A DNA stretch of 64,000 nucleotides, taken from Hydrurus foetidus (lineage: Eukaryota). The translations under genes were made by a program, and so were the position numbers. The DNA is taken from assembly GCA_900617105.1 (NCBI GenBank), contig UYFQ01000268.1, forward strand, positions 1-64,000, read 5' to 3'. Shown here piece by piece: positions 1 to 54,785 of this stretch; within the stretch, counting starts at the first letter, position 1; each line of letters opens with the position of its first letter. The notes beneath the pieces were generated by a model that made no database searches, was not told the DNA's origin, and saw nothing but the letters and a program-made list of their open reading frames with translations.

Positions 1-2714
1 TCCCTTTCTGTTATGGTGATTTCGTATGGCGTATATGGTACTTTTGTTCGTTTACGATTCTGCACTGTAATTTTATTTTGCGGCTTTTGAGTATTATTTT
101 GCGGCTCTGTAGTTTGATTTTTCTTCTTTGTGTTTGAATGTTTACCAGTTCTAGAGTTTGTATTTGTTTTTGTTGTTAATGTATTTGGTAGTGGTGTTGT
201 TTGTGTCATTTGTGTTACAATATTAGGTCTTGGATGTTGAACTGATGTTAGATCTTCAGGCGTAGATGTGTTGTCCGCCATGATATTTATTTGTGGATTT
301 ATAATTGGTATAATTTCAATAGATGTGATATTCTGTGGAGAAGATACGGTGTCATTCATAACATTAATTATTGTTTGTTGTATTGGTATAATTTCATGCG
401 TTTCTTGTGGATTATTATTATCCGGTACATTATCCTGCAATCGTTGTTGTAGCGTATTAATATTCATATTTTGTAAAATGCCAATAGATGTTGTATCCTC
501 AAGAGAAGTGTCGGTGTCCTCCATCACATTTATAACAGTATGTTCAATTGGAATAAATATTTCTGTAATTTCTTGAATATTACCGCCCGATACATTATTA
601 GATGAATTATGCCCTAGCGTATTTATATTCTGCGATTCTTGTGATGTAGGATGTGTTAGAGTAGAACTATTCTTCATTACTATCTGTTTCTGAGCATCTT
701 GCTGTTATATTTTGTATGTTATTATTTAATGTAGTATTTGAATTATTGTTCTGTGCATTGCTTGTATCGCCACTTTCAGATGTTTCCACTATATCTTGAA
801 AGTAGCGATCAATTAAATCTTTAAGTTTGTTCTGCATGTGTGATGCTAAGTGCTCGTATTTTTGTGTAAATATACTAATCCATGGATTATTATTTGTAGC
901 CTAATAATTTATAGATTACAAATCCAAATTTTAGTTCAACAGTATTGCATAATTTGGTTATGTTATTTACTTACCGATGAGTCATTATTTGTTTGACTTA
1001 TTTGTTCTTGTTGCACATTCTCACGTATATCCACTGAACCTTGACATTTCTGTGTTTAATGCATTATTGTAATACATTTCATATTTAGACACACAGTGCG
1101 TATATTATTTTGATGCTGTGTGGTATTCTCCTATTATGCAATTTGATGTCCATAATAAATGAGTATGTTTAAGATAGCATTCAATTTTTTTACCTCAATT
1201 TCCGCGACGTGAGGTTCGTCGTTATTTTGACTTAAGTCTACTTCTTCCTCTACTTCATCTTGACTTAAGTCCTCTTCCTCCTCTTCTTCCTCTTGCGAAA
1301 AGTCCACTATTTCTTGTTCTTCCGATGTTATGTTATTATTCTGCTGTTTATATATGCGACATTGGTTAAGTATATCGAAACTTGTTGATGCATAGGAATA
1401 ATTTTATCTTACATGTTTTCCATTTTTTGTTGATTTTTTCGTATTTGGCTGCGGGGTAGACTTTTTTTTTTGGATCTGTATGAAATTTGAAACGATCTAA
1501 TGTTAATTGTTTATACATCTACATAATTTGCGTTTTAATATTACCTGCGCAGTTTTAATTTGCTTTTTATTGCTTCGGACGTCTTCGTCTTCCACATCCT
1601 AGTAATTATGCAACAATTATTGGTGTTTTGGGATATGTATCTTGTAACAATCACTTACGTGTAGTTTTTGAAGCCGCGCTTTTTTTCTTGCAGCTGAGAT
1701 TCTTTTGTTGTATGTTGTTGCCTTTTGCCAATCATCCGGAATATCTTTGTCGGCAAGGCGCCACAAGAACTCTTTGTAATTTTTATTGACTTTCAGACAA
1801 TAATGAGCGAACCGTCTTTTTAATTTGTTCATATTGGAATTCTTTAAAAAGTTTTCAACCAATTCCTGCATTGCAGTTGATTCGATGGTATATAAGATGT
1901 AATAGTTTACTCAGCGTTACAGTATGTACATATTCATCATAAGTTTCTTCAACTGTACCAGATAGTCAGCATTGCGTTGCAGTTGATTCGATGGTATCTA
2001 AGATATACTAGTTTACTCAGAGTTACAGTATGTACATTTTCTATCATAAGTTTCTACAATTGTACCAGATAGTCAGCACTGAGCTTCAGCACCCGCACAA
2101 CTTCATTGCCAATTTTAAGCTGCGATACTCTGGCATCTGGGACGCTATCGTCAGCTCGAATTGAGCGCCTACATTTCAACGGACGTGTAAATTAGCAAAT
2201 AGCTAAAGTTTCTTTGTAAATCTTTGTAAAGCGGAAGGAGGACTTACAGCAGTTGCTTGATGTCAGTTCGATCATTTCCCTGGAATCGGGATACTGCGAC
2301 TTTATTAAGGAGTGTGCTTTGTCCTATAGCCGTCTAAAATGTTGGTGTTGCCTTAACGAAGCTCTGAAAAAAGTAGGCATTTGACTGAAGCTCTTTAATT
2401 AATAGATCTTTCTGCGCTTCGGATTTGAATCCCACTTAGAACACGGCGATGTACATTCTACTGCATCCATCCGACTCAACGCACTTCATAAGCTTTTCAA
2501 AAGTTTGAGGTCCTCCGACAAGAGTAATAAACTCCTTCGGTGGTGTATACTGTGAAGGATTGTGCAGGTAAACCATTTCTTCCGTGTCATCAGGCATGTT
2601 GATGCCAGCCAACTCTTGTGAGTTATATAAACCATCTGCTTCGTTTTCGCCACCAGACTCATCGGAATAGTCGACTGAGGCTTCGAGCAGCCGTTTTGTT
2701 CGGGTCTCTACCAT
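1..2714 (-). CDS. 5' part of multi-exon Ulp1/SENP-like protease gene (cargo gene D, copy A; catalytic domain expected outside the window)
   Basis: Starts MVETRTKRLLE like 50401. Shares blocks PPKEFITLVGG and YKEFLWRLADKDIPDDWQKATTYNKRISAARKKARL with copy B. Some frame disruptions; exon boundaries not fully resolved. Confidence 0.75.
1871..2078. repeat. Tandem duplication, ~106-bp period, 2 copies
   Basis: ttgcagttgattcgatggtat...gtaccagatagtcagca occurs at 1871 and 1977 with a few substitutions. It duplicates an exon end and intron of gene D. Confidence 0.9.
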
Positions 2715-3114
2715 TTGAGTGTGGTCATCTTGTTCTGTCACGCCTTGAGTGTGGAAGTTGATTGTACTGATATGTTGAGCTGAGTATATGGCACGATACG
2801 ATCGGACATTCAATCTCAGATCACATACGTACATATACCAAATATAAAATACGGTTCCTAGCTAAGGTAACCTAAGTCGGATAATTATGTATATTATCTG
2901 GTCCCGCAAACGGAAATTTTAATTTCTCAGGGCACGATCTATTAGAATCAGAATTTTGAATAGTATATGCTCTTTTTCAGAAAAGTTGCTGTTATATTTG
3001 ACATAAGTGTTTGAACATATAACAATTTGTAATTAATTACTATAGCATTACCTGTGTCTATCCTATCAAAATAAATTCTACAGATCAGTACGATACAATA
3101 TTACAAGAGGTGTA

Positions 3115-4520
3115 TTAATCATCTTCCTAAAGCATTTCTGCTTGTCCTAGAAATATCAAAATGCTTTTTTGGATATCGTCCGGCCATTCTTTAAGTAGCA
3201 TCTGCACTTTACTGCTATTTATGTAAATTTGGATGATATGTCTGTCTACCTGTGAGATATAATATGGTCATTAAATATAAAGCTAATTTTGCAGCATTAA
3301 TATAGGTAATAATTATTTCACCTTATTTATATGAAGCAGACCAGCAGCTACATCTGTGATCTGACTGTCTGTTGACGCACTGGATAGAATTTGAAGGTTG
3401 TCGTCCAAAAGTTCCTAACATTCATTATTAAAATATTGAGATATGTACCTTGGCTGGTTTAGTGCAATCATGATAACTTACGTGACAATCTATTGTCCCT
3501 TCGAACTGCGTTTCAGTAATTAGCATATTATTATATTGTGATGTATTTTCTGGTGTTCGTGGTGTCTGGAGATAAATTGGCTGACTAACTGATCGTTTGC
3601 GCTTGCTTTGACGTTGTTTTATTTTTTTTGCTTTGTCACAACTTGGAAATAGCTCCGTAAAGTAATCTGCGCTTGAACCAATTATACATTTTTTTGCACA
3701 AGTGGCGTTTGTCACCTCCTTCTGCTTGAAAGTACAATTTTATGTCATCCTGGAAACAAAAGTTATATTTAATACAGCAATTATTACTATATATATTGTA
3801 TATTACGTACCATGTCATCTATATGAACGTTGTTAATCCACCCTTGTGCTATCCTTAATAGACACTTGTTCTTTGCTGTCTTGGGTTATCCTGTTAAAAC
3901 TGTTAGACGTTACTGTAAATTTGTAGCTGTTATTATCGTTTAACAGTTTCCTACTTACAATATTGACTCAACGTCCACCACATATGTCCCCATGAGTTTT
4001 TCGACCATATATTCTCTGTAGTACCATGGAGACTTTTTAAAGTAGTGTGAAGTCTTCAGAAAGTTCCAGAACATAAGACCATTATTTATGCAGTAATTAA
4101 TATCACATGTATCTTTGTTGACCGCTCTTCTGATATCCGCAGCTTCATAATCGCACTCTGCTCTGTATGCGTTATAGTTATTTGTCCAAGAAATTATTCT
4201 GTCGTAATTAAGTTGACCTCCGACCTTACGAATTGTTGTGGATGTCGACAGCAGTCGATCAACTCTTCCTACATATATCTCGTATTCCCTCGTGTACTCA
4301 GCGTTCACCAAGTCAAAAATGTTTTCATCAAGCCCTCCATCCAGGTCACAGTTTTGAAGCATGCTGAATTATTCGACACAGATATTCCACTGCTGATTGC
4401 GCAATGCTGCATGATTAAATTTCAGTTACAGATTAAGGACAAGTCTGATCTGCTCTGTCAGACGAGTGGCAGTTACACATCGATTTGTTCAGTCATTATT
4501 CGTGTATGGTGCATGGACAA
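3115..4520 (-). CDS. Multi-exon hypothetical protein (cargo gene C, copy A; probably pseudogenised; start uncertain)
   Basis: Exon 3955-4362 (FWNFLKTSHYFKKSPWYYREYMVEKLMG) matches 48824-49231. GDKRHLCKKMYNW matches GDKRPLCKKLYNW. The last exon has TAG where copy B has TGG. Confidence 0.75.
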
Positions 4521-4853
4521 ATTCCACATGCGTCTGAATGGAAATTGATGTCGACGTGATTTGAAGGTGTAGCATTCATCCAATTTAGATGAACAGTGTC
4601 CGCCCACATGACATTTTAAGTGACGTAGCATTGATTAGTAGAGTAGTGCAGACTTATTTGGTGTCGGTTACGTTTTCGAATTCACAAGTATCGGCACACA
4701 CAAATAATGACGGAGGGTTTCGGCATGGTGGTGACGATCATGACCAAATGTCAATTAAAATGTATCATCCCATGACGAAAAGTGTGGATGGAACAATGCA
4801 CATCAAGAACAACTTGTTACAATCAAATCTACGTAACTATCAAAAATTTTGCA

Positions 4854-5570
4854 ATGGGAAAATCTCCTCAATCCAAGGCAACCAAGAAGGTTGAGAAATC
4901 ATCGAGCTCCACGGCAGCGGCTGCCTCAGATCAACCGAGCCTTAGGGCAGCAGCAAACGAGGATATCTGTAACGAAGACCATGTTTGGGCTCACGACGAT
5001 GAAGACTTAATCAAAGAAGAAAAAAGCACCGTACAGGCAGAGGATGCCGACGTTGTAATTGTCAACCGATCTTCTAACGATAGGGTATTTGATGACAAAG
5101 CCGCAAGATGCTTTATTGTAGTCTCCATGGGAAGAGTTGAGTACAAGAACGTAAAGCAACGCGGCCTTGAAGACAAACTCGAGCCTGTTATAAACATTAC
5201 CATTGTAGACACAACTGGAGTAGTCCGAACTATAATTTGTTGGGGTGAACAGGCTCATCTCTTGGAAACTTGGTTCAAGTAAGAACTATTACATATCTGT
5301 CAAGACACTTAAACTTCTTATCAGTGTCTATATTTCTGTAGCGCAAACGAATCGAGGACTGAGAAACCGACTGTGTTTCTGTTTCGTGATCCGTCGGAGT
5401 TTTTAAAGACAGGCCCACTTTACATACATTCGGATGCTTCAAAATTTCTCCAGGTATGAGTAAGCTATACAGATATTTCTCCAGGAGGCTTAAGTATTAT
5501 TAACCTTACGATTTAAATATTGTCAAATATCATTGTGATAATTTTCTGTAGTTTGTCCTAAAACCGGCCA
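4854..5570 (+). CDS. RPA70-like OB-fold ssDNA-binding protein (cargo gene B, copy A; diverges or is truncated after FVLKPA)
   Basis: VINITIVDTTGVVRTIICWGEQA resembles the RPA1 OB-fold signature (D.TG....lWG..A). Exons 4854-5278, 5342-5453 and 5552 onward have GT-AG introns. Homologue at 47337-48280. Confidence 0.65.
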
Positions 5571-6172: not shown

Positions 6173-7731
6173 ATGCCTCGAATCAAGAAGCATACGCACA
6201 AGAAGTTGCTGACTGAAGGAATTTCGTCCACAACATTGGGTAACGACATCGCTAGGGAGCCGTGCCAACTCGGTAAAACACCTGCTGCCCTATAGCTGTA
6301 AATCTTGGTTGTCCTAACTGTTGGCATTGGTAAAATGATCACAGATGCCCCCAAGGCGATGAGGGCTGCATCCAATGCAATATCGTCAAGCCAACGAAGG
6401 CTGTCGAATTTGATGGAAACGCCGACGTCTATAATTATGGCTTCGTACGCAACTGAAGCTGACATGACCAAGAAATCTGTCTGGCCTGAGCTTTTGAGCG
6501 ATCGTCATAGAGGTACTTAGATAACATTGAATCTAAGGCTCTAACTCAATGTTGACGGGACATCCTACTTCAATCAACAATAGTAGAACCGGCTGTGTTA
6601 GCGACACCGTTAATCGCTCCAAGACCGCAGAAGCTGACACAATCAATGCTGGCGCCATCGCTTATAGCTAGAAGCACTCAGAAGCAGGCGAAGTTACTAA
6701 AATCGCCACCGGTAAAAGCTTCAAACACTCACAAGCTGGCAAAGTTAATAGGAGCGCCGCCGTCGAAAGCTGCAGACCTCCGTAAGCAGGCAAAGTTGCT
6801 GAAGGCGCCACCTATAACGGTTAAGGCTCTAAAAGATTCGGCCCGTAAAATGTCAAAGAAGCCAAGCCATGAAAATCAAACCAACACATGTCATGAAGGT
6901 ACATAGATTAGGATCGATCTTATGCTTTGCCACAACTGTAGATAACCTAACATGGCACATGAATCTAGCCGTCTAAAATGCTGACCAATCCAGCTACATT
7001 AATCATTACATTTGCAGCAGATACGGCCACTCAAACTCAAGAGCTTGTCGAACAGAGCACTACATCATGGAAGCCATCGGAAAATTTGTGCATGCTTAGC
7101 GCCATGTTTGGGCTCATGAATAAGGAGCAACAAAAATTAGCAACGGTAAGCTCTGTAACTGTATTCATTTCTGCAATTTAAAGTTTATAACAATATGCTA
7201 CTCTAACACCAGATGAATGGAACGATGGATGTAAGGGAAGTTTTTAAAGCTGCAGTCAACGAACAGGGCAAAAATTTCGTACGTGGAACTACTTCGACAG
7301 ACGCGCATTTATTCTTAAGACATGTTTCAGACATGCATTATAGATCCACAGGATTAATAGTTAGGTACAGTTTCAAACAATTAGGTTTCAACGGCACCTG
7401 GGACATGACACGTCTCGAGACAAATCTGAGCAGAAAAGGAAAATATGTATTTTTTGGAGCATCGCGGAGAAATAATGATACGCACAAACGCCTTCTTACA
7501 TCTATATCTACGAAATCATTAGACACAGACAAGATTGATACATGGATTAAGGGTAAACCAATGCTTAATGATCATGCCATAGGCGTAGATTTAGATGAAC
7601 ATTTGCAGGGCACAATATATGACAACGGATGCACCGGAAGTGAAATTTTTTTCTCAATTCAAAATTTAGCCACACGAATGCGCTGGATGAACCAATGTTA
7701 TCTGATGGATCTTTATGTCATAAACAAATAA
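6173..7731 (+). CDS. Cargo gene A, copy A: Lys/Pro-rich N-terminus plus predicted papain/C39-like cysteine protease domain
   Basis: The MPRIKK start is shared with copy B (MPRFKK). Intron 7146-7212. ENLCMLSAM, GTTSTD, DHAIGV and IYDNG are conserved in both copies. The N-terminal part has stops and its exon structure is uncertain. Confidence 0.6.
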
Positions 7732-7752
7732 TTTAAATATAGATTTTTCTCA

Positions 7753-7827
7753 GGGGGTAACCTCATTTTTTTCTATATCAACTTCTGTTGGGTCCGTAGG
7801 AATTTATCAATGGTTTCCGGGTGCCCC
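7753..7827 (+). other. Conserved 75-nt structured non-coding element downstream of gene A (copy A)
   Basis: GC-rich island that aligns with the reverse complement of 45112-45186, while its flanks are diverged AT-rich DNA. Its ends are complementary (GGGGYA...TGCCCC). Confidence 0.7.
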
Positions 7828-7951
7828 GTTACTGAATGGAAGTAAAAAAAATACAAATATATTTTTTAACTGAAACTTTGGATTCTTTTTAAGATTTTGA
7901 ATGTAACTTCATAAAAATTCTCAGCAAAACTCTTTTGAATACAAAATCCAA

Positions 7952-10900
7952 TTACAATCGAAATAAACGACTCAGGCGAAAATATTCTTTGTCGATTATC
8001 TCCCGCTCTTTTGCATGACTTGTAAAATGCTGCTCTTTTAATGGTCTAATTAGAAATAGTTTTGATAATTCTGTTGCCCTGGAATTAGCGACATAGTCCA
8101 ATCCGCGAGCCCATGGAGACTTCAGGGAAGGAATCGTGACACAATTACCTTTTACTGTTGACCCTTGCATTTTATGAGTTGTTGTAGCGAATGCAGCAAC
8201 AAGTGGAATTTGCCATCTAAAATAATTCTTCCCATATCTTTCGGTCACATCACATTGTTCCGTAAATGGAATCACATTGGGTATAGATGGTATAACTGAA
8301 TAACCTATATCATTGTCCATCTGGACAAATACCACAGGTAACTCCTTTTGTATATACGAACTTTGTTGATCATTTGCGATTATATCTGGATCATACGAAA
8401 ATGCAAAAGCAACCACCTTGCCTTTTGCACCATTAAAGATTCCTAAATAATTCATATACATGTTATATATTGTGAGCGAATGTTGTATACATAATGTATG
8501 TTGTAAAATAGCTCTCGTAAAATTTTTATAACAAATTGAAAAACAAGATAAATGTTCACCTATTTGTGTTCCCAGGTTCATAGTGCAGCTCACTTTCGTG
8601 CCAATGGCCAGATCTAAATATGGAGATGGACTGCCATACCTTGTTATTAATAACATTGCATCAACGGCTTCTTTATCCGGCAATTTATATTCTTTTGAAA
8701 CAGGTAAATGCCGTGCAATAAGTTTATAACTTTAAACACCATTTGACACTTTTTCTTCAAAATCTGTTTTATTAAGTCTTCTAACTATCTTATTCTCGTG
8801 AGCTATCCATACAGCATCCGGACCAGCTTCTCTCCTTGCTGCTCTTTCGTTTACACATACTCGAGAATTTATCGCATGTAGTAACTCCTGGTTAACAATT
8901 CCTTTTCTTGCGCCAGATAAAAACACATTCATGATCGGAGTCGTATCATGCATATACCTTGTATTTTCAGTTAGAACTACATATTCATTCAAATCTTGCC
9001 ATATTTGGCGCCCCTTAATTGAGCTCTCATGTTTAATATTACTTGTATAGATAGCTTCTGGATCAATTGGCCTTAATTGATAAAAATCTCCAGTAAACAA
9101 CATATGTACACCCCCAAAATGTTTTGATTTGAAACTATTTCGTAGAACTGGATCACTTGTTTGAGTACCCATAGCTGCTATCTGTCGCTCACTTATTTCA
9201 TTTAATGTTTGCAAATTGATCATTGAAATTTCATCAAGGACAATAAGTTTAACACCCGATATTTTACTACCAACAGCTTGTGCACATTCTTTCGACATAT
9301 TACAGACTTTTGACTTCTTTTTTATTCTACCTTTTCCGTAGACTGACTGCCACGTATACCCGCTTATAACACTAGCTGCCGCACCCGTCGGTGCTATGGC
9401 CAATGCTGAACCGTATAAACCCTTCTGTTTCCCATGACATATTTGTGTATATTCCATTATCAAGCTAATAAGGAATGATTTACCAGTACCACCTTCGCCA
9501 GTTACAAACATTAACATCTGACTATTCTTCTCGCCACTTATGTACTCGACTGCAATATTATATGCTTTCAGTTGCTGTTGTGTTAGTCTACTTACATTCA
9601 ATTGTAACGTATTTAATCTTTCGTCATAATTGTCTACTCTACAATATAAATTACAACCATATGTTATATCATCACTAATAGATGTAGACTGTATTGAGTT
9701 TATTTGTCTCAAGTTTTCTATATGTTTATTTTGAATAGTCTGGATAAAATTTTGACAATATCGCATATTTGCAGCCGTAAGATTAATCAGACATTCAGTG
9801 CTCAGATTATTAAAATTTACTGGTATACTTATACTGTCGCCAAGTTGAGCCATATGACTTTCATCTATGACATAGCTGTTTTCATCACTGCTGTTATTGT
9901 ATAAATATTCATCAGTAGGTTCTCTTCTGTCATTTATATTTGTTCCCACATTTTCTCTAATAAGATTTGAGTTGTGCAATAACTCTAAACTGTAATTCAC
10001 ATAAGAAGGAATATCACTATTTCTCTTCAAGTCGTACAGACATTCGACAGCACAGTCAAAACCACGTAATAATTCTTCTTCACCATCACTAGGCCATGGA
10101 ATATGAACAAGTAGAGTTGAGTAACATGAACGTTCATCGCTATCATTAACAGGTATATATGGACAAAGATTAATTACACAATCCTTTCTTAATCGTGTGT
10201 AAACTGTACTATTAATCATAAATTTGTGATTTTTCGATGTAGATATAATAATACCACGATCATCAATACGTAATAATGCCGGAGCGGGGTATACTTTTTT
10301 ATTTTCAATACTAACGGTGTATGATGTGTACAATGAAAATAATGACACATGACATTTACCGTCATATGTTTCTCTTTGCTGAATAACAAGACTCTTATAT
10401 GCCAACCGCTTACCCAGTGCAGAATTAGGACCAGATTCAATAGCTGAAGCTGAACTTTCAAGCTGACCAATAACTTCAGCCCTAGTTTTGAGACCTCGAT
10501 TCAGTTCGTCACCTAATAAATATTTAATAAGGCGGATTTATATAAAAAACGATAAAATTAAACAGCGATTATAAAAAATACATATACAATCAATATATAA
10601 ACTTACGGTGTAGCGGATTAAGATTAATAACAGCCCGTGATGACTTAACTATCTTCAAACCCAATTATGAATAACAAGCCTGAACAGAACCAACCGGACT
10701 ACTTCCCAAAATAGCGCTACCAACGGCATACAAGCGCTGTCGGTCAGTAACAACGCGGCTATTATCAATAATATATTTGATTTTCTTAGCGTAAATATTA
10801 GCCATAACTTTTTTATCTGGCTCCTCAGCTTTTGATGCGTACGATGCAACATATTCTGCGGCACCTACACTTTTGCCAATGTACTGAATGTCATGATCGC

Positions 10901-11064
10901 CTCCATGTGCAACAGTTATTAGCGGACTATGTAAAGTACCATTCAAATAAGCATTATTTCTTTCAGGAATTACGGACACCCTTATTCTGCTTTTCTTATC
11001 ACGATCTCGTCTAATAATAGGCTCGAAAATACAGCCATCATTAACCCAGGGAAAACCGAATCGG
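7952..11064 (-). pseudogene. RepHel (Rep C-terminus plus PIF1-family SF1B helicase), 5'-truncated
   Basis: Motifs CRFGFPW (partial), EYVASYASKAE, TGEGGTGKS, LDEISM, FGGVHMLFTGDFYQL, THKMQGST and YVANSR. Introns 10606-10513 and 8559-8443 sit at the same positions as in copy B. In-frame TAA at 10665-10667 and 8732-8734. Confidence 0.92.
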
Positions 11065-11407
11065 TTAAGAATCTTGAGGGATCAACCAATGAGGTTTGAG
11101 TTCGAACGTGTTATCTTTTGAAGATTTTTTAGCCTAATTTTTTGCCCTTTTCTAAGGAAATTTTATGTTTTTTTAGTCAGTAAGAATCTGACATAATTAC
11201 GTTTTCTACCCTCGTACAACAGAATGAATCTGTTTTGTACAACCCCACCTTATCTTTCTACATCGAACCCCAAGTCTCGGCTAATTTTTCTTTTGTAATA
11301 CTTTTTATGTTCACTTTTATTTTTCATATTTTCGATTTTGCAAATATTTCGATATTTTCTTTTTCGATTAAATTATATATTAAGCTTTGCAAAGAAATGG
11401 GGGCTCC

Positions 11408-11495: not shown

Positions 11496-11706
11496 TAATG
11501 TGATAGTACCGGGTCCAGGGTCCCGATCCTACCGAGTACCGACTCTACCGGATCCTACCGGGTACTACTACTGTACACTATAGTTAGGCTGTTGTATCGT
11601 CGAGGCCATCTGCAGCGTCCACGTAGAAGTTAACTAGCTTCTAGCCTAGCCGACCAGTAACTAAGCCTACCTTTCTCGACTCTCCCTTTCTCCATTTCCG
11701 TGACTA

Positions 11707-11890
11707 TAATACAAAGAAACCGACATCGATGTCGTTCCATGTTAAATGGCTCAACTATGATAACTCACATAATACATGGGAGCCTTGGAAGAATCTCCGG
11801 CTCTGTGAAGCACTCCATGTATACTTGCGGAATAATAACATGTCACGTTTTATTCCCAAGAATCTTGAGGGATCAACCAATGAGGTTTGA
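11707..11890 (+). pseudogene. Chromodomain fragment (integrase C-terminus of a chromovirus), one per unit; internal ATG at 11729 gives a 53-aa ORF
   Basis: Translates as NTKKPTSMSFHVKWLNYDNSHNTWEPWKNLRLCEALHVYLRNNNMSRFIPKNLEGSTNEV*. This matches the F.VKW..Y....TWEP..NL chromodomain signature. The ORF is below the ORF-track cutoff. Confidence 0.9.
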
Positions 11891-38015: not shown

Positions 38016-38444
38016 CCGAATACATTTCAGAGGCCTATATAGGATATGCGGATTTACAATTGGGGGATAAACCTAATGGTGGTTCCACCTCTATATAACA
38101 AATGTCATTTTATATGACGCTAGATTTGCAGGGATTTGACCGTGTTCTCGCAGTCCGAGAATGGTTTTAGGGGGTCTAATTTTGGGGGGATTTGACGATC
38201 CGGGGGTCTAATGTTGATGCGATTATCCGGTGGGTTTTATGGAGCTGGACGTTTGGATGATCCGGGGGGGGGGGTCTCATGGAGTTTGGGTGAAACACAC
38301 GACGCAACCCTCTGTACTGTTATCTACTCTTGTGATGAGACGAACTGAAACTAGCTGAACTTCAGTGCTGATGTATTCATGATGGGCTAGTCATTAACTT
38401 CAGATCGAACCATTTACAGGCTCATAGTATTGACTTGCTTTTTT

Positions 38445-41400
38445 ATGGAGCGTTGTGATATTTTGAGGGATGCCCGAGTTGTTCCGCAGAGAGGTGACAA
38501 CAGCTGCCTTTTTCATTCGCTAAGTTTTTGTCTCAGTTATGATGGGATAGTGCCAAGTATTCACGATGATATGTCCGGTTTTCGTTTGCGGGAGGAGATT
38601 TGCAGTTACATCCGCGATAACGAAGATGTGGTTATCAGTATTGCTCCAGAGGAGCAGCGGACATTATCTGAGGCTGTTGGAATGGAGGGTTTTACGTGTT
38701 CTAGTTACTGCGCCAAAATGTTGAATCTTATGGAGTGGGGATCTGTCATTGAGATTGCTGCGGCTGCGGAAATGTTTCTTATTGGCATTCGAATCTATGT
38801 GCCTGTTACGCGGAAGCGGTATTTTACGTTGTTGGGCTCATACAGGTGTATTGGGTTTGATTCGAATTCTAGTGAGATCTATTTATTGTACACTGGTTTC
38901 AACCATTACGACGCTTTAGTTGATTGGTCACCTGGGGGCATCAATGTGGGTCTGTGCAGCGCCGACAACTCTTCATCGTATCTTGGTCGCCCAATACATG
39001 AGTATAATACATCTGCATCATTTGCGGAACGGAGGCGGCTTTCACGTAAGCGTGTGTCAAGTGCTAATTTGGAATGTCGTGGCGACATGGCATTGTCGTC
39101 TAAATCTACTGAGTACATGTCTCGGCGGTTGCCTATCTATTCCGGACTGACTGATGAAGCTAAGAGGACAAACAGAAAGCTTCGAATTGAAAGGCGCGTT
39201 GCCACAAGGAGAAGTGTTTCAAATTCTGTTGGCCGGTCATCCTGTTCAATTGATGCATCGCTTTATGCCAAAAATTATGATATATTGACAAGGTTCATTG
39301 TCTGCGGGATTTGTGGCCTGGAAGGTTCTAGTGTTGGGGCGAAGCTTATTTGTGATATGCAGCATTTTATTGATGCGTCAGGGTTGACGGCAAAGTTCAA
39401 ACTTTTGACAACGGTTCACACATATATGTCAACGTATGACTGCATGTTCGTTGATGATCTTTTGCGGGTTTTCAAAGATGGAATTATTATCGGTTGTACT
39501 CATTTGTGTAGTAGTTGTTGTCACCAACTTCAAGGCAAGAAAAAGTCTGGAGTCATTTCTGACTTGGCACCAGTGTGTGTGGACGATGCCATTACTGTTA
39601 TCGAAGGTCACGATACTACCATGGCGCATCACGATATGATACAAGAGGGTGAAGAATGCCAGTCTGGTCCCTTATATAGTGAAGTTGTTGGTCTTTCTAG
39701 CTCTAAGGAAGGGTCTGCATCTCGAAGTTACAGCGTTCCCAAACTCACGTTATTTAATGGGTTATTTGCCGGAACTATACCTTCTGAGTTGGTTGGTTTA
39801 ACTTGTGTCGAAGAAAGTATGATAAATATCTATTCTTCCGTGACGAAAATGTTTTTGGCGGGTGGAAAGCACTACAAAGTCAAAGGCGGAACCAGCTACA
39901 CAATTATTAATGATTTGACTAGTGTAGCTAAGTATCTACCACGTATGCCGTCCATTGAAGATACAGCTGTTATGCGTCACAGAAGAACTGATGTTGGGAA
40001 GGAGTACAAATATCGACCATTTAGGGTATTTTCGGCATTGAATTGGTTGAAAGAGCACAATCATTTGTATAGTGATATCGAAATTATCTGGCCTATTAAT
40101 GTTAAGTATTGGCAGGAAACGACATCACCAGTTGATATTCCTTTCATTGAATTAACTGATGATGAGGATTGTGATATTGATGGTGGTAATGTTGCAGTCG
40201 ACGAAGTTTCTGATGAATACTCTACTAATACAGGTATATTTTGCCTTGTTGTGTTACTACGTGTTCATTGCTAATTTTCAAGACTGACATTCCCAACATT
40301 ATCATATTAGTATCAGCAGGAAAAAAGCACGAAATTTTGTTGGAGTCACCTGACTCCTTGGTTTCACATATTGAGGGTATATGCAGTGCTTTAATTGACC
40401 CATCACATTGTACTTATGAGAGGAACACGCTACATGAATTCGTATGTCAGTTCAAAAATCCTGAGTATTATCTATCGCGGTGTTTTGCTTGTCTATATCC
40501 GTACGGTCGTGGGTGTCCTAGCGACAAGTCGTGTGGTATGCTTAGCAACGCAAAATACGTAAAACACATGTTGTGTTTAGGTGGTGGGCCTTCAGCTAGG
40601 AGGTTTCAACAGTCAGCTGGATTCATCTTTAATATGTATACAATGGAGATGAGAAGAAAGTTAGGGGCGTTGCTTTCGTGGCTCAAAAAAAAAATCTTGA
40701 TAGTACAGCTCCACTTGAAGAAGTACCAAATATTAGTGATATTAACAATTTATTAAATTATTTGGAGGAGTCTTTAGTTTCCGCTCAAGAAACATTGAAG
40801 TCTAGTAATGTGTCTAGCGATACAGCTATGAATAAGTCATCGGACAAGTATGATGAAAGAGAGATGCAAAAATTGATTAAACGATTAATACCTTATTCTC
40901 AGTCGTTACAAGGAACTGCAACTCATATAGCTTATGAAAGGACTAAACTTATGGCAATGATTCCGTCTCCTATAATCAATAAGTTGGGTTTGTGGCGACT
41001 ATTTTTTACTGTTGCACCAGCAGATCTTTATGAAAGTCGCTTTTTCGAACTTGTACAGAGCCAAATAACTGATCATAGTATTGAATTTTGGAATACCAGA
41101 GTTAATAAGGTAAGTTAATTATATTTACAATTTCTATACCCATTATTTTGCATTAATCAGTGTAATTTATTTACTTATATTTAGGCGAAGTTGCTAGATT
41201 CTGATACAAGAATGAATCTGTTGCGAAGTCATCCAGCAACTGTCGCACGTCTATTTGATTACAAGCAGGATTGTATGTGGAAATATCTTGTGATGGGTGA
41301 GTCTAAGCCATTTGGAGAAGTTACTGATTTTTGGAGGCGAGTCGAGGTATGTTTTGAATTAACCATACATAATGTCACTTTCAGTTCTAATTCATTTACG

Positions 41401-44400
41401 TACAGTATCAGGCTCGCGGAACACCACATGTTCACAGTTTGATTTGCATTTCAAAGGCGGATGGTATTGATTCTGGTACAGTTGATAGTGACGACGTTGT
41501 TGAACAAAATAAAGTTAAAAGTTATGTTCAAGGTATTGTCAGCGCAATTTTGGTCAAGAAGATTAATTGTACGAATATAAGTGTTGATATGAATGGCAAA
41601 GATCAGCAGAATATTGGAGATACGAATATAATGAATAAAGTTGAGTTGGATGAATCTGATTTTCTTTGGAATCCATCTAGGGAATATTTTTCAGATGATA
41701 TTCACCCATGCCGACTGCCATTTGATGCCCATTTGAATTATGAAAGGAGTGTTGATGGTGTATTTGCCGACAACGATGTGCAGCGTCAATACCGTCGACT
41801 CCAAATAGCAACACAGTTTCACAGGTGCTGCTTCACGTGTTTTAAGTATTGTTATTCGCACAACCAAGTATGTAGATTCGGGTTTCCATGGGTTTCTGAT
41901 GGTTGTACATTTGAGCCTATCATAAGGCGAGATCGCGACAAGAAGAGCAGAATTCGGGTTTCTGTCTTACCACAACGAAATAATGCATATTTAAATGGTA
42001 CATTACACAGTCCATTAATATCGATTGCTCATGGTGGAAATCATGATATTCAGTACATTGGTAATAGTGTTGGTGCTGCAGAATACGTCGCGTCATACGC
42101 ATCGAAAGCTGAAGAACCAGATAAAAGTGCGATGGCTAATATTTACGCCAAGAAAATAAAATATATTGTTGATACAAGTTCTGTTGTTACAGATAGACAA
42201 CGATTGTATGCCGTCGGGAGTGCTATATTGGGGAGTAGTCCGGTTGGTGCTGTTCAGGCGTGCTATACATTATTGGGTCTTAAAATCGTTAAATCTTCAA
42301 GAGCTGTTATTAATCTTAATCCATTGCACCGTAAGTTTTGCTTATTGCACATTTAATTATTTGTATATATTTTATTTATATTACTTAGCGGTGTCTAATT
42401 GACAGTTTCAAATTATATTAGGTGATGAGATGAACAAAGGTCTTAAGACTAGGGCTGAAATTATTGGTCAACTTGAAGATTCAGATTCAGCAGTTGAATG
42501 TGGCCTTAACTCTGCGATGGGTAAGCGTATGGCATATCAATTGTTAGTCATACAGCAGAGAGAAAATTATGATGGTAAATGCAACATCACCATATATTCG
42601 TTGTATACATCATACAACGTTTCTGTAGCAAGCACAAAAGTGTACCCTGCTCCGTCATTACTACATGTTGATGACGGTGGTATTATTATATCCACATTAA
42701 AAAATCACAAGTTTATGATTCAAAACACAGTCTACACGAGATTAAGGAAAGATTGTGTTGTCAATCTGTGTCCATATGTACCTGTGAACGATAGTGACGA
42801 GCGATCGTGTTATTCAACATTACTCGTACATATACCATGGCCATGGGGTGGTGAAGAGGAAATTTTACGAGGCTATGAGTCTGCTGTAGAGTGTTTGTAC
42901 AACCTCAAGTTGAGTGACGACATTCCACCGTATGTAAATTATACACTTGAATTATTACACAATTCGAATGTTATTAGAGACAATGTTGGAGTGAATATCA
43001 ATGAGGTTGATGAGGAGTCTGATGAGTTCTTATACAATAATTGCAGCGATGAAAACAACTTTATTGTTGAAGAAAGCAATTTGTTACAATTTGGCGATAC
43101 CATCAATATGCCCTTAAATCCGTATAATAACAATATTGACTCTATGATTAATATCACTGCTGCAAATATGCGGTACTGTAAAAATTTTATACAAAATGTT
43201 CAAAATAAACATTTAGAAAGTTTAAGAATAGAAAATTCAATTCATTATATAATGGCGAATTATCATCTGGTTCAAATATTTATTGTAAAGTCAACAATTA
43301 TGAAGAAAGATTTAAAAAGTTAGAAGATAATGTTAGTAGGCTTACAAAGCAGCAACTGAAAGCGTACAATATTGCCGTGGAGTATATAAGTGGTCAGAAA
43401 AACAGTCAAATGTTAATGTTTGTCACTGGCGAAGGTGGCACTGGTAAATCATTCTTAATTAGCTTAATAATGGAATATACTCAAATATGTCATGGGAAAC
43501 AGAAAGGTTTATATGGTTCTGCTTTGTCTATAGCACCAACAGGAGCTGCAGCAAATGTAATCAGCGGTTATACTTGGCAATCAGTCTATGGAAAGGGTAG
43601 AATAAAAAAGAAGTCAAAAGTGTGTACTATGTCGAAAGAATGTGCACAAGCTGTCGGTAGTAAAATTGCTGGTGTCAAACTTATTGTTCTCGATGAAATC
43701 TCTATGATAAACTTGGAAACATTGAATGAAATTAGCGAACGGCAGATCGCAGCTATGGGAACACAAACTAGCGATCCGATATTGCGACAGAGTTTCAAGG
43801 AAAAACATTTTGGAGGTGTGCATATATTGTTCACTGGAGACTTTTATCAACTAAAACCAATTGAGCCAGAGGCTATTTATACAAATGATATTCAATACGC
43901 ACGCTCAATTAAAGGTCGCAAGATTTGGTTGGACTTGAATGAATATGTTGTATTGACAGAAAATACTAGATATATGCTCGATGCGACGCCATTAATGAAT
44001 GTTTTCTTATCCGGGGCAAGAAAGGGTATTGTCAATCAAGAATTATTACAAGCTATGAACTCCCGAGTATTTGTTAACGAAAAAGCTGCCAGACGAGAAG
44101 CAGGTCCAGACGCTGTATGGATCGCACACGAGAATAAAGTTGTACGGAGACTTAATAAGACAGACTTTGAAGAGAAAGTCTCAAATGGTGTTATCAATCA
44201 TAGGATTATTGCACGGCATATTCCTGTATCAAAAGAACATAAGATGCCTGACAAGGAAACTATTGATAAATTGTTATTAATTACAAAATACGGCAGTGCA
44301 GCTCCTTATTTAGATTTGGCAATTGGTACTAAGGTTAGCTGCACTATGAATTTGGGAACACAAATAGGTACACTCTTGTTTATTTTCGTCTATGTAATAT

Positions 44401-44965
44401 GTATTGTCTAGAATATAAATGTATTCCTTTATTAATATTTGTGATTGCCAATTATTATAGGTATATTTAATGGGGCAAAAGGGAAAGTTGTGGCCTTTGC
44501 ATTCTCCTACGATCCAGACGATATTGGAATTCATCAACAAAGATCCAATGTACAAAACGAACTCCCTGTCGTATTTGTCAAAATGGATCACGATGTAGGT
44601 TATTCAGTAATACCATCGCTACCTAATGTTGTACCATTTACCGAGCAATGTGACATCACCGAGAAATATTCTAAAAATATCATCGATGGCAGATTCCGCT
44701 TGTTGCTGCATTTGCAACTACAACCCACAAAATGCAAGGCTCAACTGTCAAAGGAAATTGTGTAACTATACCTTCTTTGAAGTGTCCATGGGCTCGTGGA
44801 TTGGACTATGTTGCTAATTCTAGGGCAACGGAATTGTCAAAACTGTTCCTCCTTAGACCTTTGAAATCGCAGCATTTCACAAGTCATGAAAAAGAGCGAA
44901 ACAAAATAGACGCAGAATATGCGCGCTTAAGCCGCTTGTTTTGCTCAGCTGGTGAAACTAATTAA
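38445..44965 (+). CDS. RepHel transposase: OTU protease, Cys-rich region, HUH Rep, PIF1 helicase; 6 exons, 3 frameshifts
   Basis: OTU: GDNSCLFHSLS, WGSVIEI, NHYDAL. Rep: FFTVAPAD, spliced RRVE/YQARGTPHVH, YVASYASKAE. Helicase: TGEGGTGKS, LDEISM, GDFYQL, HKMQGST, YVANSR. Introns 40234-~40310, 41110-41184, 41347-41405, 42331-42421, 44368-44460. Frameshifts near 40665, 43245 and 44673. No C-terminal endonuclease seen. Confidence 0.93.
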
Positions 44966-45111
44966 TTGTAGTACCATGAAACCACAATTGTAACGAGATG
45001 TACAAATAGTTTCCGATCCGTACAGGAAACTAAGTATTTGAAGTTTAATGAAATTACAAATTTAAGTAGAAATATGATTGCAAGATAATTTTTTCCTTTT
45101 TAAACAGCCAA

Positions 45112-45186
45112 GGGGCACCCGGAGACCATCTATAAATCCCTACGGACCCAGCAAGAACTGTATGAGACAAACATGAGGTTGCCCCC
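45112..45186 (-). other. Conserved 75-nt structured non-coding element (copy B)
   Basis: Reverse complement aligns with 7753-7827: 13/14 identity at the 5' end and 37/42 at the 3' end. Confidence 0.7.
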
Positions 45187-45207
45187 TACGAAAATAGCTT
45201 GATTAAA

Positions 45208-46452
45208 TTAACTCTTTATGACATAAAGATCCATAAGAAAACATTGATTCATCCATCGCATACGTGTTGCTAAATTTTGTATTGAAAAAACTTTTTCACC
45301 GGCAGTACACCCATTATCATATATAGTGCCATTCATATTGTCGTCAACATCGACACCAATCGCATGGTCATTTAGAATTTGCTTTCCCTTTATCCATGTA
45401 TCTAACTTATCGGAATCTGAGTGTTGCGCAGTTATAGATGTTAGCAAACGTTTGTGAGTATCATTATTTTTACGTGTTGCTCCGAAGAATACATATTTCC
45501 CTGGCCTACATAAATTTGATTCGATTGAATGCATGTCCCAATCGTTGTTGAACCCTAGCTGCTTGAATTTGTAGACAACTAACAATCCTGTCGCCTCAAA
45601 ATGCATCTTAGATACATGTCTGAAAAATTTGTGGGCATCGGTAGATGTTGTTCCCTAACGAAGTTTCTGCCCTGTTCACCAACTGCTGCCTTAAACATAT
45701 CCCTAACATCCATGGTTTGGTTCATCTGTAATATAATATTGAACTTGTTAAAATCAACTCTAGCTGTTAAGATCTCATATGGTCCGAACTCACCGTTACT
45801 AAGTTTTTCTGGTCTTCGTTCATAAGACTGAACATCGCGCTGAGCATGCATAGATTTTCAGATGCCTTCCACGTTGCAGGTCGTTGGGTGATTACTTCTT
45901 GACTTGGGCTCACTATTGGTTCACAAATTGGAGTAATTAAAGCCGGGATCATCGAATAGTTGATAAAGCATTGACAGACGGTAGGTTGTTGAAGTCAGTT
46001 ACGTTTGAAAGCAGCATGCATAAGTATAGAGTGTAACCTACCGCTTGTGGTTGGCTCTGATTTTGACGCTCTCGCCAATTTGGCGTTTGGTTTGGCAATT
46101 GTTGCTGATGGAGTTATGCCTGTTCTCCGGAGGTTGATGCATTTGTTAGTCGAGGATTCTAATTCAGCTATTGAAATCAAAAGGATCTTACCACTCGACT
46201 GTGGCTTGGGCTTTGTCACCAGTGCCATTGAAATCTCTGGTTTCGCAATCTTAACTGATGGTTAATTGCCAATAGTTCAGAAGTTCATTGGATAAGTTTT
46301 TGGCGACATTTGGCGACATTTGAATCTAGCAACCGGGTTAAGTTGAACTTACTTAGCTTTTGTGGCGTGTTAGTGAGTTTCCGGAGAGCTTTTGTTGGCG
46401 CTTTCAGTGGAGTTGACCCGTCGTGTTGTTTCAGCTTCTTGAATCGTGGCAT
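45208..46452 (-). CDS. Cargo gene A, copy B: basic N-terminus plus predicted papain/C39-like cysteine protease domain
   Basis: WKASENLCMLSAM, intron 45793-45726, DHAIGV, IYDNG. One frameshift in a G run near 45653. N-terminal exon structure uncertain. Confidence 0.65.
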
Positions 46453-46492
46453 GTCAAAATTGCGCCGGCGGCCAAATTTCCTGACGAAGAAA

Positions 46493-46760
46493 GATAAATC
46501 CGTAAGCTCAACAATTCGAGCCTTGCAGTGGCGGCTTGAAGATGGCGTGGCTGATTTGTGGACTACGTGGCATCCATCGATATATTGATTGCTGCGATAT
46601 CTGCGACTTGAGATGTGCAGCAATCGATAAATCCGTAAGCTCAACGATTCGAGCTTGCAGTGGCGGCTTGAAGATGGCGTGGCTGATTTGTGGTCTACGT
46701 GGCATCCATCGATATATTGATTGCTGCGAGATCTGCGACTTGAGATGTTGCAGCAATCGA
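46493..46760. repeat. Near-perfect tandem duplication, 133-bp period, 2 copies
   Basis: gataaatccgtaagctcaac...gcagcaatcga begins at 46493 and again at 46626. Confidence 0.95.
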
Positions 46761-47336
46761 CGGTCGGATCTGACGAGTCCACGTTTTGAAATTTTTTCAA
46801 TTAGTACTAAATTATCTTAAATAGCATCAAATCAGCTTATTATCATCTTTCTTGACTGCTGCAGCTGCAAAAATTTAATAACTTCAATACAGCTGGTTCA
46901 TTTTGCGAAAAAAATCTCTTATCGATCATGTTTCGATTAACCTAGTGTAGGTGTTCATCAGATTTGAAATAACAGCTGTTTTTCTTACAGTAGCAAACAA
47001 TTTTGAATACGATGCCATATATGTGGCTAAACAGCTTCGAGATTAATGCGTTGTCCGCACCATATGATGTTGTGAAAGTTGGAAGGAGATTATATTCGAA
47101 TGCGATATGCCTTATTTAAATCGGTTTGAGGATTACGTTTTTTCAAAATACAGGGCACAAATATATTCATCATATTCTAACAGGCGTCACACTGCGAAGT
47201 ATAATCATGATTTAATGGAAATTCCCGAATTGAATACGCAATTAATTGGACTGTTCTACAAATCGCTTGTTAATTCAAGGTTAAAGGGTCAAGCTACAGC
47301 TAATTGGTATAGCTACTTGGTGATGTCGTGTTAGCA

Positions 47337-48599: not shown

Positions 48600-50132
48600 C
48601 CAGTGAATATGTAGGGGGAGTCTGCAATATAAGTGTAACTGACACCAGATTGTATATATACGGTTTGCATTTTATACTGTTAACTGTTGAGATAAACAGT
48701 AGATTCTCGACACAAGATAGTCGCTGTCAGCATCGAATACTCTATGTCTAAAATACAAAGTACCGAGCAGGTTCAAAGTTAAAGGCACAAGATCTGCTGC
48801 AGTTCGGGTAACGTTGAACTAGTATGCTAGATAGCTTTGAGCTTGACGCTGATTTCGACGTGGACATTTTCGACATTGTAAACTCCATGTACACGAAGGA
48901 GTATGAGGCATACGTGGAAAAAGTTGATCAGTTATTATCGACATCATCAACTTTAAATAAAGTTGGTGGTGCATCAAATTATGCGAGACTTCTGTCTTGG
49001 AAGGACACTTACAACATCAGCCGAGAAAAATCTGCTACGGAAGCTGCCAAAATACGGGAAGCTGTTCGTCAGAGAACGTTTGACTTGGCGCATTCCGTAG
49101 ATGACTGCCGTATGTTTTGGGACTTTCTGAAAACTTCACATCATTTCCGAAACTCTCCATGGTACTACAGAGAATATATGGTCGAAAAGCTACTTGGAAG
49201 ACATACTGTCGATGTTGAGAGCATATTGTGAGTAAACTTGACTATGCATTGTGTCGAATAGTCATTAACAAACAACAACTGTTGACAGTTACGACAGGAT
49301 ACTGCACGAAAATAACGACCCAGATATCTGTCAAGCTGATTCATCAGTTCAGATACCTTGGACTGACGGTTATAGATCGATAAACGACGTTCACAAAAAT
49401 GACATGGTAAGTAACATTAATTAATCGTTGACTTCTTGCGCTTATTGGCTTATCGTTAACTTTTAACTATAGAAGGTTATTGGTATGTACTTTCGGGCAG
49501 AAAGCGGCGACAAGCGTCCGTTGTGTAAAAAGCTATACAACTGGTATAGACGTAGAGTAACAGATTACAAAAGTTACCTTTCAGTGCTGTTTCCAGAGAA
49601 AAACGCGTCATAGCAAAGGTGGTCACTTCGGAAGTTGCCAGTACCAAACGAGTAAGAATAACCACAGACGTTCTTGGAAAACCAGTCACGCCCAATAATG
49701 GTGCAAAAGGTGCTACTGTTGTGCAGAGATTGTTGAGAAACTTCAAAGAATCATACAACGTAAGTCTACAATATCATAATATGATAAGCTATAAAATAAA
49801 AGTAAAATGATTTTAATTAATGTTGTAGGACAGGTCAGGTGTTAGCATGGGGAGTTTATCAAATGCCGCAACAGACAGTCAATTAGAGGAACTAGTTACA
49901 TTGCCAGTAACAAACAAGGTTGAAAAATGAATACCACTCTAACAATACATTGCAAAACCTTTTAATCAATTATCATTCCTTATTATAGGTGAATAGACGT
50001 ATCATACGTATCGATATCAATAGCGAAAGAATCCAGACACTGCTGCATCAATGGTCGGATGAGATCAGAGAAGAGTTTTTGATCTTTCTGGATCATGCAG
50101 AAAGTATTTGGACAACTTATGAAAGTTGTTGA
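48600..50132 (+). CDS. Multi-exon hypothetical protein (cargo gene C, copy B; start uncertain)
   Basis: Exon 48824-49227 and downstream exons (YFRAESGDKRPLCKKLYNWY; VNRRIIRIDINS...IFLDHAE) are conserved with copy A. No family recognised. Confidence 0.75.
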
Positions 50133-50400
50133 CGTAACTTTCAACGTCTTCATATTTGAATTTTAATAATAAACTACACAGTATAGCTAGCGTATAATAA
50201 CCTTATTACATTGTCTGTCTCACTGTACAGCGTACCGCCAGTAAACTCGTATTTCGTTAATTAAGAAAAAATTGTATACACTGCGAACAGATTTTTGGTA
50301 ATTTTTCGAGTACTGAACACTGAGCAACGTGCAATCAGATCTAACCTCATAAGACATCGGCTAACAATTGAGAGAAAGCGATTGCACAAAAACACTGACA

Positions 50401-53400
50401 ATGGTGGAAACTCGCACAAAACGATTGCTTGAACAGCAGGACGAAGAGCCATGTGATAATGCGTCAGTTGACACATTAGCTGGGTCGGAAGACGATGATT
50501 TACCACGTGACACAACCGGGCATGTGGTGCTTTATGAAACTCGTCAACCGCCAAAACAATTCATGGATCTCGTCGGTGGAGCAATTAAGTTCGAACAGCT
50601 TATGCTATGCGTTGAATCGTATGGCAAATGCCAACTTTACACGCAGATGTTCCGTGACCTCTACACATCTGAAGCTCAGAAAGAGGCTCTGATCAGCAAG
50701 CTTCAGAGAAACGTGTACTTTTTCCAGAGTTTTATTGAAGCAAAGCCGACATACAAAACATGTCTTGGAGAAAGAATAATGTTCAATCAATACGCTGTTG
50801 AGAAATTCCGCAGAAACAATGAGAAATTCGACCTCATCAAATTGCTGTAAGTCGATCAGCAGCTATATAAAAATCGTTTCAAATGAGCTAATCCATGGAA
50901 CTTTTGATTACAGACGCGCCATCAACATAGTCGACGCACTTCCTGACACGAAGGTTTCAATTATACAGTTGAACAATGAGACTCTGCGAGTGCGAAAGCT
51001 TAATGACGATCTACTGGTAAGCAATACATATCAAAATTGACAAGTCAATGTCGAATCCAATATTCTCTGGCTGATGGAAACTTAATGCATCCTTAACAAG
51101 CAGACACTGGTCGGGTACAGTTTGCAAAATATTCACAAAACGAAATTAGGAAGAAAATTATCAGACTTCTCTCGAAGAGCACAACAAGATTACAAGGAAT
51201 TCTTGTTCTGCCTTGCTGACAAAGACATTCCATTAGATTGGAATAAAACAACAGCTTACAACAAGAAAGTTTCAGCTGCAAGGAAAAAAGCACGACTGGA
51301 AAAAGACGCGGTAAGTCAATATCAATATAACAACGTAACACCGTCAACAAACAATCGGATACTAATTTGATTAATGAAAATGGCAGTTGGCAAAAGAAAC
51401 TGAGCCCATCGACGCGGAGACAACACAGATAAATGTCTCGCAGGTACGGCATATTAAGTTAAATTGCATTACTCTTATTGACTTCTCTAATTCTAATATC
51501 CCACTCCCATGACAGACGCGTACGAAAACAGTTAAAAGACAGCAATTACAGAGATATACCTCAGAAGACAACATAGATGTACGTAACAATACAAATAATT
51601 ATCGTAATATTGAGACTCCTTATTTGCTGTATGTACATTTTTTAACGCAGCAAAATGATATGAGTACTCCTATAGACGAGGACGATGGCCAACAGACCCA
51701 AGTGTCTACCACCTGTGACATACAAGAGATTACGGTAAGCTTGTTAAATAAAACAACAATATAAATAAAAAAAGATAACAGTTCAAAATGAAATAATCAA
51801 TACATCGTTAAATAGGACGAGATACGGCCAGTAAATGAACCTGCAGCAGTGATGCAAACAGCTAGTCAATCTGCAGCAGAGGTGTCCCAAATAGTCTGTG
51901 ATACTGAGGCCGAGGTACTCCACATCCTGAGTGAAGTAATAGCACAGGTAAACATAACATAATAACTAATGCTAGACAACTATGTGACATGGTTTTCAGC
52001 GTTTTAATTAATTAACACATATTTCAACCACTTAAACTTAGGTTCATGAAAATCGTGAATGGATGGATCATATAACAATAAAAATGCGAAGTTTAACTAC
52101 TGCAAAACAGGAAGAATTTAAATTTATAGTAAATTGCTTTTTTGAAAACAACAAAAATGATAATGAACAAAATGAATCATTCAATATACCAAATGCAACA
52201 TTCAACGCTCTAATAGGTAATGAATCGCAGAGCGATGTAGTAGTTTCCGGAGAAGAACTTAGTACGGTATCAAATGAAACCATAGTCACAAATATTAGTA
52301 CAGCACCTTTATTTACTGAAAACATAACAATTAATAACACACAGCAATATTCACCGACCAACGAAAATAATAACTTAAATATAACAACAAATAATATGCA
52401 AGTACTCGGACAAGCAAATAATACAGCGTTAGCGACGATAACAACATTAGAAGAAGTAACAAAAAGTAATAAGCAAAGAGTAAATAGACCTAGGCAAACA
52501 AAAACAAAATTTACCCCATACAATATAACAATTACGTTAAGAAACAGGAATACATGCACAATTCCGGTAACAACATTTTTCAGTTCCGCAAGCCAGCCAA
52601 GGATTGGTCGTGGGCAAAACTTAACAAGAATTGCTAAAGTAAGAACAGACGAAGAGCTTGTGAGTGACGAAATCGATTTATATATAAATCATTTAAATCA
52701 CAAACACAAATTGGCGAAAATAACAGACGTTATAATATTAAATGTAGATTTTTATATAATGGCACTAAGATACGTAGTACAAGAAAGGGATGAATTCAAT
52801 GCACCACAATTACAACAGCCAACGGGTACAGAAGAATATGGTGAATTAATACCAAAATATCCGCTAATAAAACCTTACGACGAAGAAAATGAAATTAGAT
52901 GCACAACCGTAATTGGACATTTCCCGAAAAAAGAAGATTTTAAAAATTTTCAAAAGGTACGATAATAAATCAGAATGTTCCTCGATAAATAATCAATTGA
53001 CAATTCAAGCTAATTTCTGATTTCTTACGCGATAACGTTATCACAGATTATGTTCCCAATCCAATCAGACGGACACTGGATCCTCGTTGTAATCTCATTA
53101 AAATACAAACAAATAATGATGTGCGATAGCTTGGATAATAACAATTGCCAGTCAGATGTGTGGAGGATACAGTTTCATTTCTACGGTACTACTATCCGGA
53201 AATTCCGGAATCAGACTGGAGATACGATACCTTAAACGCAGCAGACAAATTCCAAAATTTGGAACTTAATACTGACTGTGGCTTTCACATATTAAACTTT
53301 ATGCATGCGGCACTTAAAAATGCAAGAATACCACTATTACATGAAACCTTTAATGAATTCAAGGCACGTACTGATAGAATATTGCATGACTTGACAAAAC

Positions 53401-53483
53401 CTGCACATGTTTTAATAACATCTTCTTCAGTCGGAACAACACAAGAACAAAATGAAGAAACACCACAAGAACATGTAGAATAG
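50401..53483 (+). CDS. Multi-exon Ulp1/SENP (peptidase C48)-like SUMO/ubiquitin-like protease (cargo gene D)
   Basis: C-terminal IILNVDFY...IMFPIQSDGHWILVVI...CDSL...FQ....NTDCGFHIL follows the C48 His-Asp-Gln-Cys order. A chain of GT-AG exons links it to the MVETRTKR start. Intron 52957-53046; frameshift near 53160. Confidence 0.8.
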
Positions 53484-54738: not shown

Positions 54739-54785
54739 ATGAATCATCTTACATGCTTATTATCAATTAAATTCATATGTTTATT

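Follow-up and report, generated by a model that had tools for sequence, protein, structure and literature searches.

A 64,000-nucleotide stretch of Hydrurus foetidus DNA (assembly GCA_900617105.1, contig UYFQ01000268.1, positions 1 to 64,000 of the forward strand; hereafter the window) contains two inverted copies of one Helitron family, and both carry a gene, here termed gene A, whose product is very probably a catalytic enzyme of the papain fold, judging from a structural model and from residue conservation. Gene A is conserved between the two copies and lies inside the element. Its family is new within a well-known superfamily, and transposons of this class have been known to pick up ubiquitin-type proteases. 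As the best single explanation, held tentatively, we propose that gene A is an accessory gene of an HLE2-type Helitron (HLE, Helitron-like element), encoding a thiol enzyme of papain fold, in a family so far without a name, that would remove or clip a ubiquitin-like tag.

Gene A in the two Helitron copies

The two copies are 75% identical (7060-11062 versus 45879-41875). In copy 1, gene A is read on the plus strand from a candidate start codon at 6173-6175 (MPRIKK), whose counterpart in copy 2 (MPRFKK) lies at 46452. The open frame at 6556-6898 encodes a low-complexity Lys/Pro/Ala-rich leader; its 5′ edge, like the exons between 6173 and 6556, is provisional. A predicted phase-1 intron of 119 nt (GT...AG, 6899-7017) separates the leader from an exon at 7018-7145 bearing the predicted nucleophile Cys (codon 7089-7091, in ENLCMLSAM), and a predicted phase-0 intron of 67 nt (GT...CTAAC...CAG, 7146-7212) precedes the last exon (7213-7731, 172 codons plus stop), which encodes GTTSTD, the predicted catalytic His (codon 7573) and the Asp (codon 7621). 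Position 7060, where the first-pass annotation had begun the gene, falls inside the exon 7018-7145.

Copy 2 of the gene is inverted (45208-46452, minus strand), with introns at 46041-45913 and 45793-45726 that partner the two of copy 1; the second, a 68-nt GT...AG intron, sits at the matching codon. Its predicted catalytic codons lie at 45850 (Cys), 45366 (His) and 45318 (Asp). Codon positions in both copies agree with the earlier report that ENLCMLSAM, GTTSTD, DHAIGV and IYDNG are kept in each. Cys and His are 139 residues apart, and the Asp follows the His by 16 residues, not the 14 first counted. The N-terminus is Lys/Pro-rich as described (K 13%, P 9%, A 13% over 127 amino acids), and no tblastn match was found between the leaders of copies 1 and 2. 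A direct repeat of ∼120 bp lies upstream of copy 2 gene A at 46470-46800; none was seen in copy 1.

Support for the predicted splice

The junction 7145/7213, already proposed in the first-pass annotation, is predicted from sequence and backed by three indirect tests. Most close metagenomic relatives, down to 32% identity, start at the same MNG exon start. Two of the relatives, P0022 and P0034, have mis-called N-terminal extensions that in another frame fit NLCMLSAMF at 9/9 positions, a fit reached by none of 3000 shuffles, and an intron of ∼65-68 nt then follows; the Cys position itself is ambiguous in these extensions (C, F, S or Y). Finally, natural intronless relatives cross the junction without a gap. 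On a profile made solely from 14 intronless relatives, the predicted splice reaches 166 bits, against 123-158 for three alternative open GT-AG pairs and 127 for the last exon by itself. No spliced full-length gene A protein was found among proteins of 80-408 or 409-2000 amino acids. A contig of run X19 spans both introns unspliced; X19 is RNA only by guess and is uninformative on expression. Two deleted forms were also seen: protein P0037, in which the Cys motif is fused to the His region, and a skip of 399 bases in the last exon (joint 7247-7647) in contigs from two runs.

Conservation of the predicted catalytic residues

Between copies 1 and 2, the nonsynonymous rate (dN) is 0.126 with the synonymous rate (dS) saturated over 26 codons of the Cys exon, 0.154 with dS 2.2 over a further comparison of 22 codons, and 0.181 with dS 2.0 over 148 codons of the last exon. 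Because dN is thus 0.13-0.18 while dS is ∼2 or saturated, the motifs are not there by chance.

A search over 1.84 billion representatives gave 93 matches, some of them natural intronless proteins. Alignment A3 has 69 rows, three from the window and 66 of 145 hits, and excludes fragments, near-duplicates and two repeat proteins (P0209 and P0240, dropped as false matches). The predicted catalytic Cys is present in all 15 rows covering its site (one of them, P0173, probably misplaced) and the His in 66/66; the third triad residue is Asp in 62 of 65 rows and Asn in the other three, and is directly followed by Asn in 62/65. Within GTTSTD, the Gly is kept in 63/66 rows and the Asp in 61/65. Across relatives at 20-30% identity, no positions are better conserved than those of the triad; the variation among further homologues that would have spoken against the first-pass annotation is not seen in A3 (Cys 15/15, His 66/66, Asp/Asn 65/65). 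Two exceptions stand outside A3: P0269 has Tyr in place of the Cys, and the fragment P0164 has Cys in place of the His. Among 42 long cluster members, 27 match the Cys pattern; the other 15 comprise nine that begin downstream of the Cys, four beginning Met-Cys, P0269, and one left uninspected.

Two other residues were considered as catalytic and rejected. The Cys of DNGC and His91 are both invariant in 31 close rows, but are kept in only 45/65 and 51/66 rows, respectively, when distant ones are included; a permuted enzyme with His before Cys is therefore unlikely.

For 20 relative clusters looked up, the sources are only ENA, JGI/IMG or Logan, and any name given is ‘hypothetical protein’. Neither protein searches nor a DNA pattern for the Cys exon yielded a relative's locus in contigs from metagenomes, viruses or genomes.

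Predicted fold

In the structural model of P0193, helix 11-19 begins with Cys11, to which the gene A Cys aligns; His155 stands at the start of strand 155-162 and Asn170 at the end of strand 165-169, in agreement with the earlier placing of the Cys at a helix start and the His on a strand. By this model the family has the testable features of clan CA, with the Cys heading the core helix, a conserved His and a polar residue on adjacent strands, and a fold match. The structure search suggested in the first-pass annotation returned papain-like matches: staphopain, AvrPphB and ComA head the Foldseek rows in the PDB, those of staphopain and AvrPphB/YopT having E 2e-3 to 8e-3, probability 0.95-0.98 and TM-scores of only 0.29-0.39. 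For PDB entries whose titles omit the fold, we assigned it by assumption. The closest structural matches are nearly all peptidases or isopeptidases, and language-model neighbours fall in the C39, C39_2, Mac-1/IdeS and IpaJ clusters. BFVD searches gave no match at E ≤ 1e-3. AvrPphB is missing from the 50 best VIA rows obtained with the full domain, and DUC from the full-domain VIA lists, which leaves room for kinship with either.

Sequence searches of Pfam, NCBIfam, PHROGs and the PDB returned nothing credible for gene A; PF03412 and PF13529 in particular had no match at E ≤ 1 among 31 last-exon proteins or 14 intronless relatives. The first-pass annotation had called the product a C39/C58-like papain-clan peptidase. 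The predicted papain fold and Cys-His-Asp triad are supported; the narrower label was too specific. Neither C39 profile matches, and for C58 there is a structural match at Foldseek rank 3 (E 3.7e-3, TM 0.29) and no Pfam match.

Comparison with known peptidases

C39 peptidases (PCAT1, ComA; PF03412) and C39_2 (PF13529) are only 7-11% identical to gene A in addition to lacking a profile match. Unlike C39, gene A is eukaryotic, has predicted introns and is not fused to an ABC transporter: it stops at 7731, directly after the domain, and no match was found among proteins of 409-2000 amino acids, which is weak evidence. Two additional helices (119-147) also set the family model apart; they come after the first core strand and before the strand of the His. 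Staphopain and AvrPphB/YopT (C58) share the canonical triad with gene A but are bacterial secreted enzymes; we take staphopain to be MEROPS family C47.

The residue after the catalytic His separates gene A from most deubiquitinases (DUBs). Proteases of ubiquitin and ubiquitin-like proteins (Ubl) that act at Gly-Gly (USP, UCH, OTU, Josephin, MINDY, CE clan, DUC) are described as having an aromatic gatekeeper directly after it (PMC7391069). In gene A relatives this residue is Ala in 62 rows and Gly in four, and aromatic in none of the 66; Josephin DUBs with bacterial clippases, and plant DUC, by contrast keep the aromatic (PMC7391069; bioRxiv 10.1101/2024.07.24.604956; bioRxiv 10.64898/2025.12.04.692294). 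The YopT-type enzymes, described as having a canonical triad and no gatekeeper (bioRxiv 10.64898/2025.12.04.692294), resemble gene A in this. Among the closest known systems are also the VTD DUBs of Helitrons and herpesviruses (Herpes_teg_N, presumably MEROPS C76; 8ADD, 2J7Q, 8ADB). An Asp-x-His catalytic motif is given as the hallmark of VTD/Herpes_teg_N (PMC9741609); in the gene A family a His stands two residues after the Asp in 0/65 rows. Of the features tested, gene A lacks those of C39, VTD and gatekeeper DUBs and has those of clan CA. We found no published description of this putative Helitron protease family in a literature search without most subscription journals.

Proposed function and alternatives

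In the proposed mechanism, the His would activate the Cys at the start of the core helix, the Asp would orient the His, and an acyl-enzyme would form as the triad cuts an isopeptide or peptide bond. A ubiquitin-like tag would thereby be removed or clipped from host or element proteins, and the element may benefit through a more stable RepHel or blunted host silencing. The basic low-complexity leader might, speculatively, direct the enzyme to the nucleus or chromatin. We favour a ubiquitin-like tag as the substrate because the peptidase domains catalogued for Helitrons in Table S11 of PMC11417382 are OTU, UCH, C48 and VTD, and because Helitron VTDs are reported to cleave ubiquitin and NEDD8, with the proposal that they shield transposition proteins from the proteasome (PMC9741609). 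The active site, with no gatekeeper in 66 rows and no Asp-x-His, weighs against an ordinary Gly-Gly DUB. The known DUB/Ubl exceptions to that rule, the ZUP1 family, UFSP and VTD, are all among the fold neighbours of gene A.

The same active site suits a site-specific endopeptidase of the AvrPphB, staphopain or C39 kind, cutting a host protein (e.g. a silencing factor) or an element protein with no ubiquitin-like tag involved. The prevailing His-Ala, the shared YopT-type triad, the top Foldseek rows and the language-model neighbours all speak for such an enzyme, which we consider a serious, if doubtful, alternative. Other acyl chemistry (Gln/Asn deamidation, transglutamination or acyl transfer), directed at ubiquitin, NEDD8, an E2 or another host protein, seems unlikely, given the predominance of peptidases and isopeptidases among the nearest matches; in BFVD a deamidase comes up only at rank 48 (E 0.51). 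That gene A is a non-catalytic or decayed fragment captured from a host, its motifs coincidental, is very improbable. Copy 2 does have a one-base frameshift near 45655 in this assembly, both RepHel genes run through several frames, and the leaders do not align. Against decay, the frameshift is missing in nearly all contigs of four public runs (X12: 10,866/10,925 depth), and the frame is open at that site in relatives of 214 amino acids (P0003 and P0052-P0061, a 37-member cluster); moreover, dN falls well short of dS, and the triad residues are the best conserved of all at 20-30% identity.

If gene A does act on a ubiquitin-like tag, it could found a new class of deconjugase with a canonical triad and no gatekeeper, completing a set of three proteases in which OTU acts on ubiquitin, Ulp1 on SUMO, and gene A on a third tag such as UFM1 or ATG8 or as a clipper of ubiquitin. 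We regard this extension as rather unlikely. VTD DUBs are thought to derive from a YopT-like precursor, of which gene A might further be a surviving relative.

DUB classes are still being added singly, VTD, clippases and DUC being examples, with transposons among their sources. Helitron domain surveys would miss the gene A family, which lies outside the sequence databases searched above, and gatekeeper screens for DUBs would discard it. With a domain of ∼200 residues and natural intronless members, it lends itself to expression and to assays with standard probes. Whether a third tagging system is attacked or a host protein is cut directly would then become clear, which bears on why rolling-circle transposons retain proteases, still an open question.

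The carrier Helitron

In copy 1, the Rep C-terminus and PIF1 helicase (7952-11066, minus strand) lie tail to tail with gene A, Rep being cut by a tandem array. Copy 2 has an OTU-DUF6570-Rep(HUH)-PIF1 gene in several frames (38391-44962, plus strand), with profile matches to OTU (E 1.8e-7), PF20209 (DUF6570, E 6e-16), PF14214 (Helitron_like_N, E 2.5e-6) and PF05970 (PIF1, E 6e-25), and a HUH motif in Rep. DUF6570 is described as the marker of the HLE2 group (PMC11417382), and by its predicted HUH Rep, PIF1 and DUF6570 domains the carrier is an HLE2 element. A Ulp1/C48 protease gene in several exons (GHW...DS...QN..DCG) follows at 52600-53483 (plus strand), so that gene A would add a third protease family to OTU and Ulp1/C48, as first supposed. 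The OTU-DUF6570-Rep-PIF1 core and the Ulp1 gene are shared with other HLE2 elements, whose cargo comprises OTU, DUF6570, RPA and Peptidase_C48; the captured domains listed in HELIANO Table S11 (PMC11417382) include no C39-, C58- or C47-like one. The present element also differs in having at least six genes downstream of the helicase, five with counterparts in both copies, gene A being the first.

A hairpin-forming sequence at 53762-53787 (plus strand), occurring once in the window, is the likely 3′ end of copy 2. In runs X20 and X3, contigs pass from 45193 straight to this hairpin; this places gene A inside the element, and the existence of such shorter variants without gene A makes it look accessory. 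Contig depths of thousands in two runs suggest that the family is high-copy, summed depth not being copy number.

A conserved non-coding stretch of higher contig depth separates the gene A stop codon from that of the helicase (7732-7853 and 45101-45193). Some contigs join it directly to the 3′ hairpin, and shorter derivatives may retain it as a cis element. Cargo gene B (4776-5456, plus strand; 48298-47690, minus strand) is conserved in both copies and has no Pfam match; its motif D-x-T-G...I-x-x-W-G resembles what we take to be an RPA-type OB fold. At least three more conserved cargo genes, apparently with introns, occupy 1620-4368 (minus strand) and 48818-51316 (plus strand), with 45-57% identity between copies and no credible Pfam family.

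Other features of the window

The tandem array that interrupts copy 1 Rep and abuts copy 2 (11067-37990) has ∼34 near-identical units of ∼800 bp. Every unit includes part of a chromodomain (11681-11887, PF00385, E 2.3e-9) and a purine tract that runs into TG. The array resembles the 3′ end and long terminal repeat of a retrotransposon, presumably of chromovirus type; the amplification may be genuine or may have arisen in assembly. Downstream of the Helitron, a GC-poor palindromic stretch (53892-54095) adjoins an element at 54101-56699 that has 50-bp terminal inverted repeats and a 623-amino-acid open reading frame (54786-56657, minus strand) with no credible Pfam match; this is probably a DNA transposon. 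A multi-exon host gene with RRM domains (PF00076, E 5e-16) lies at 57101-58925.
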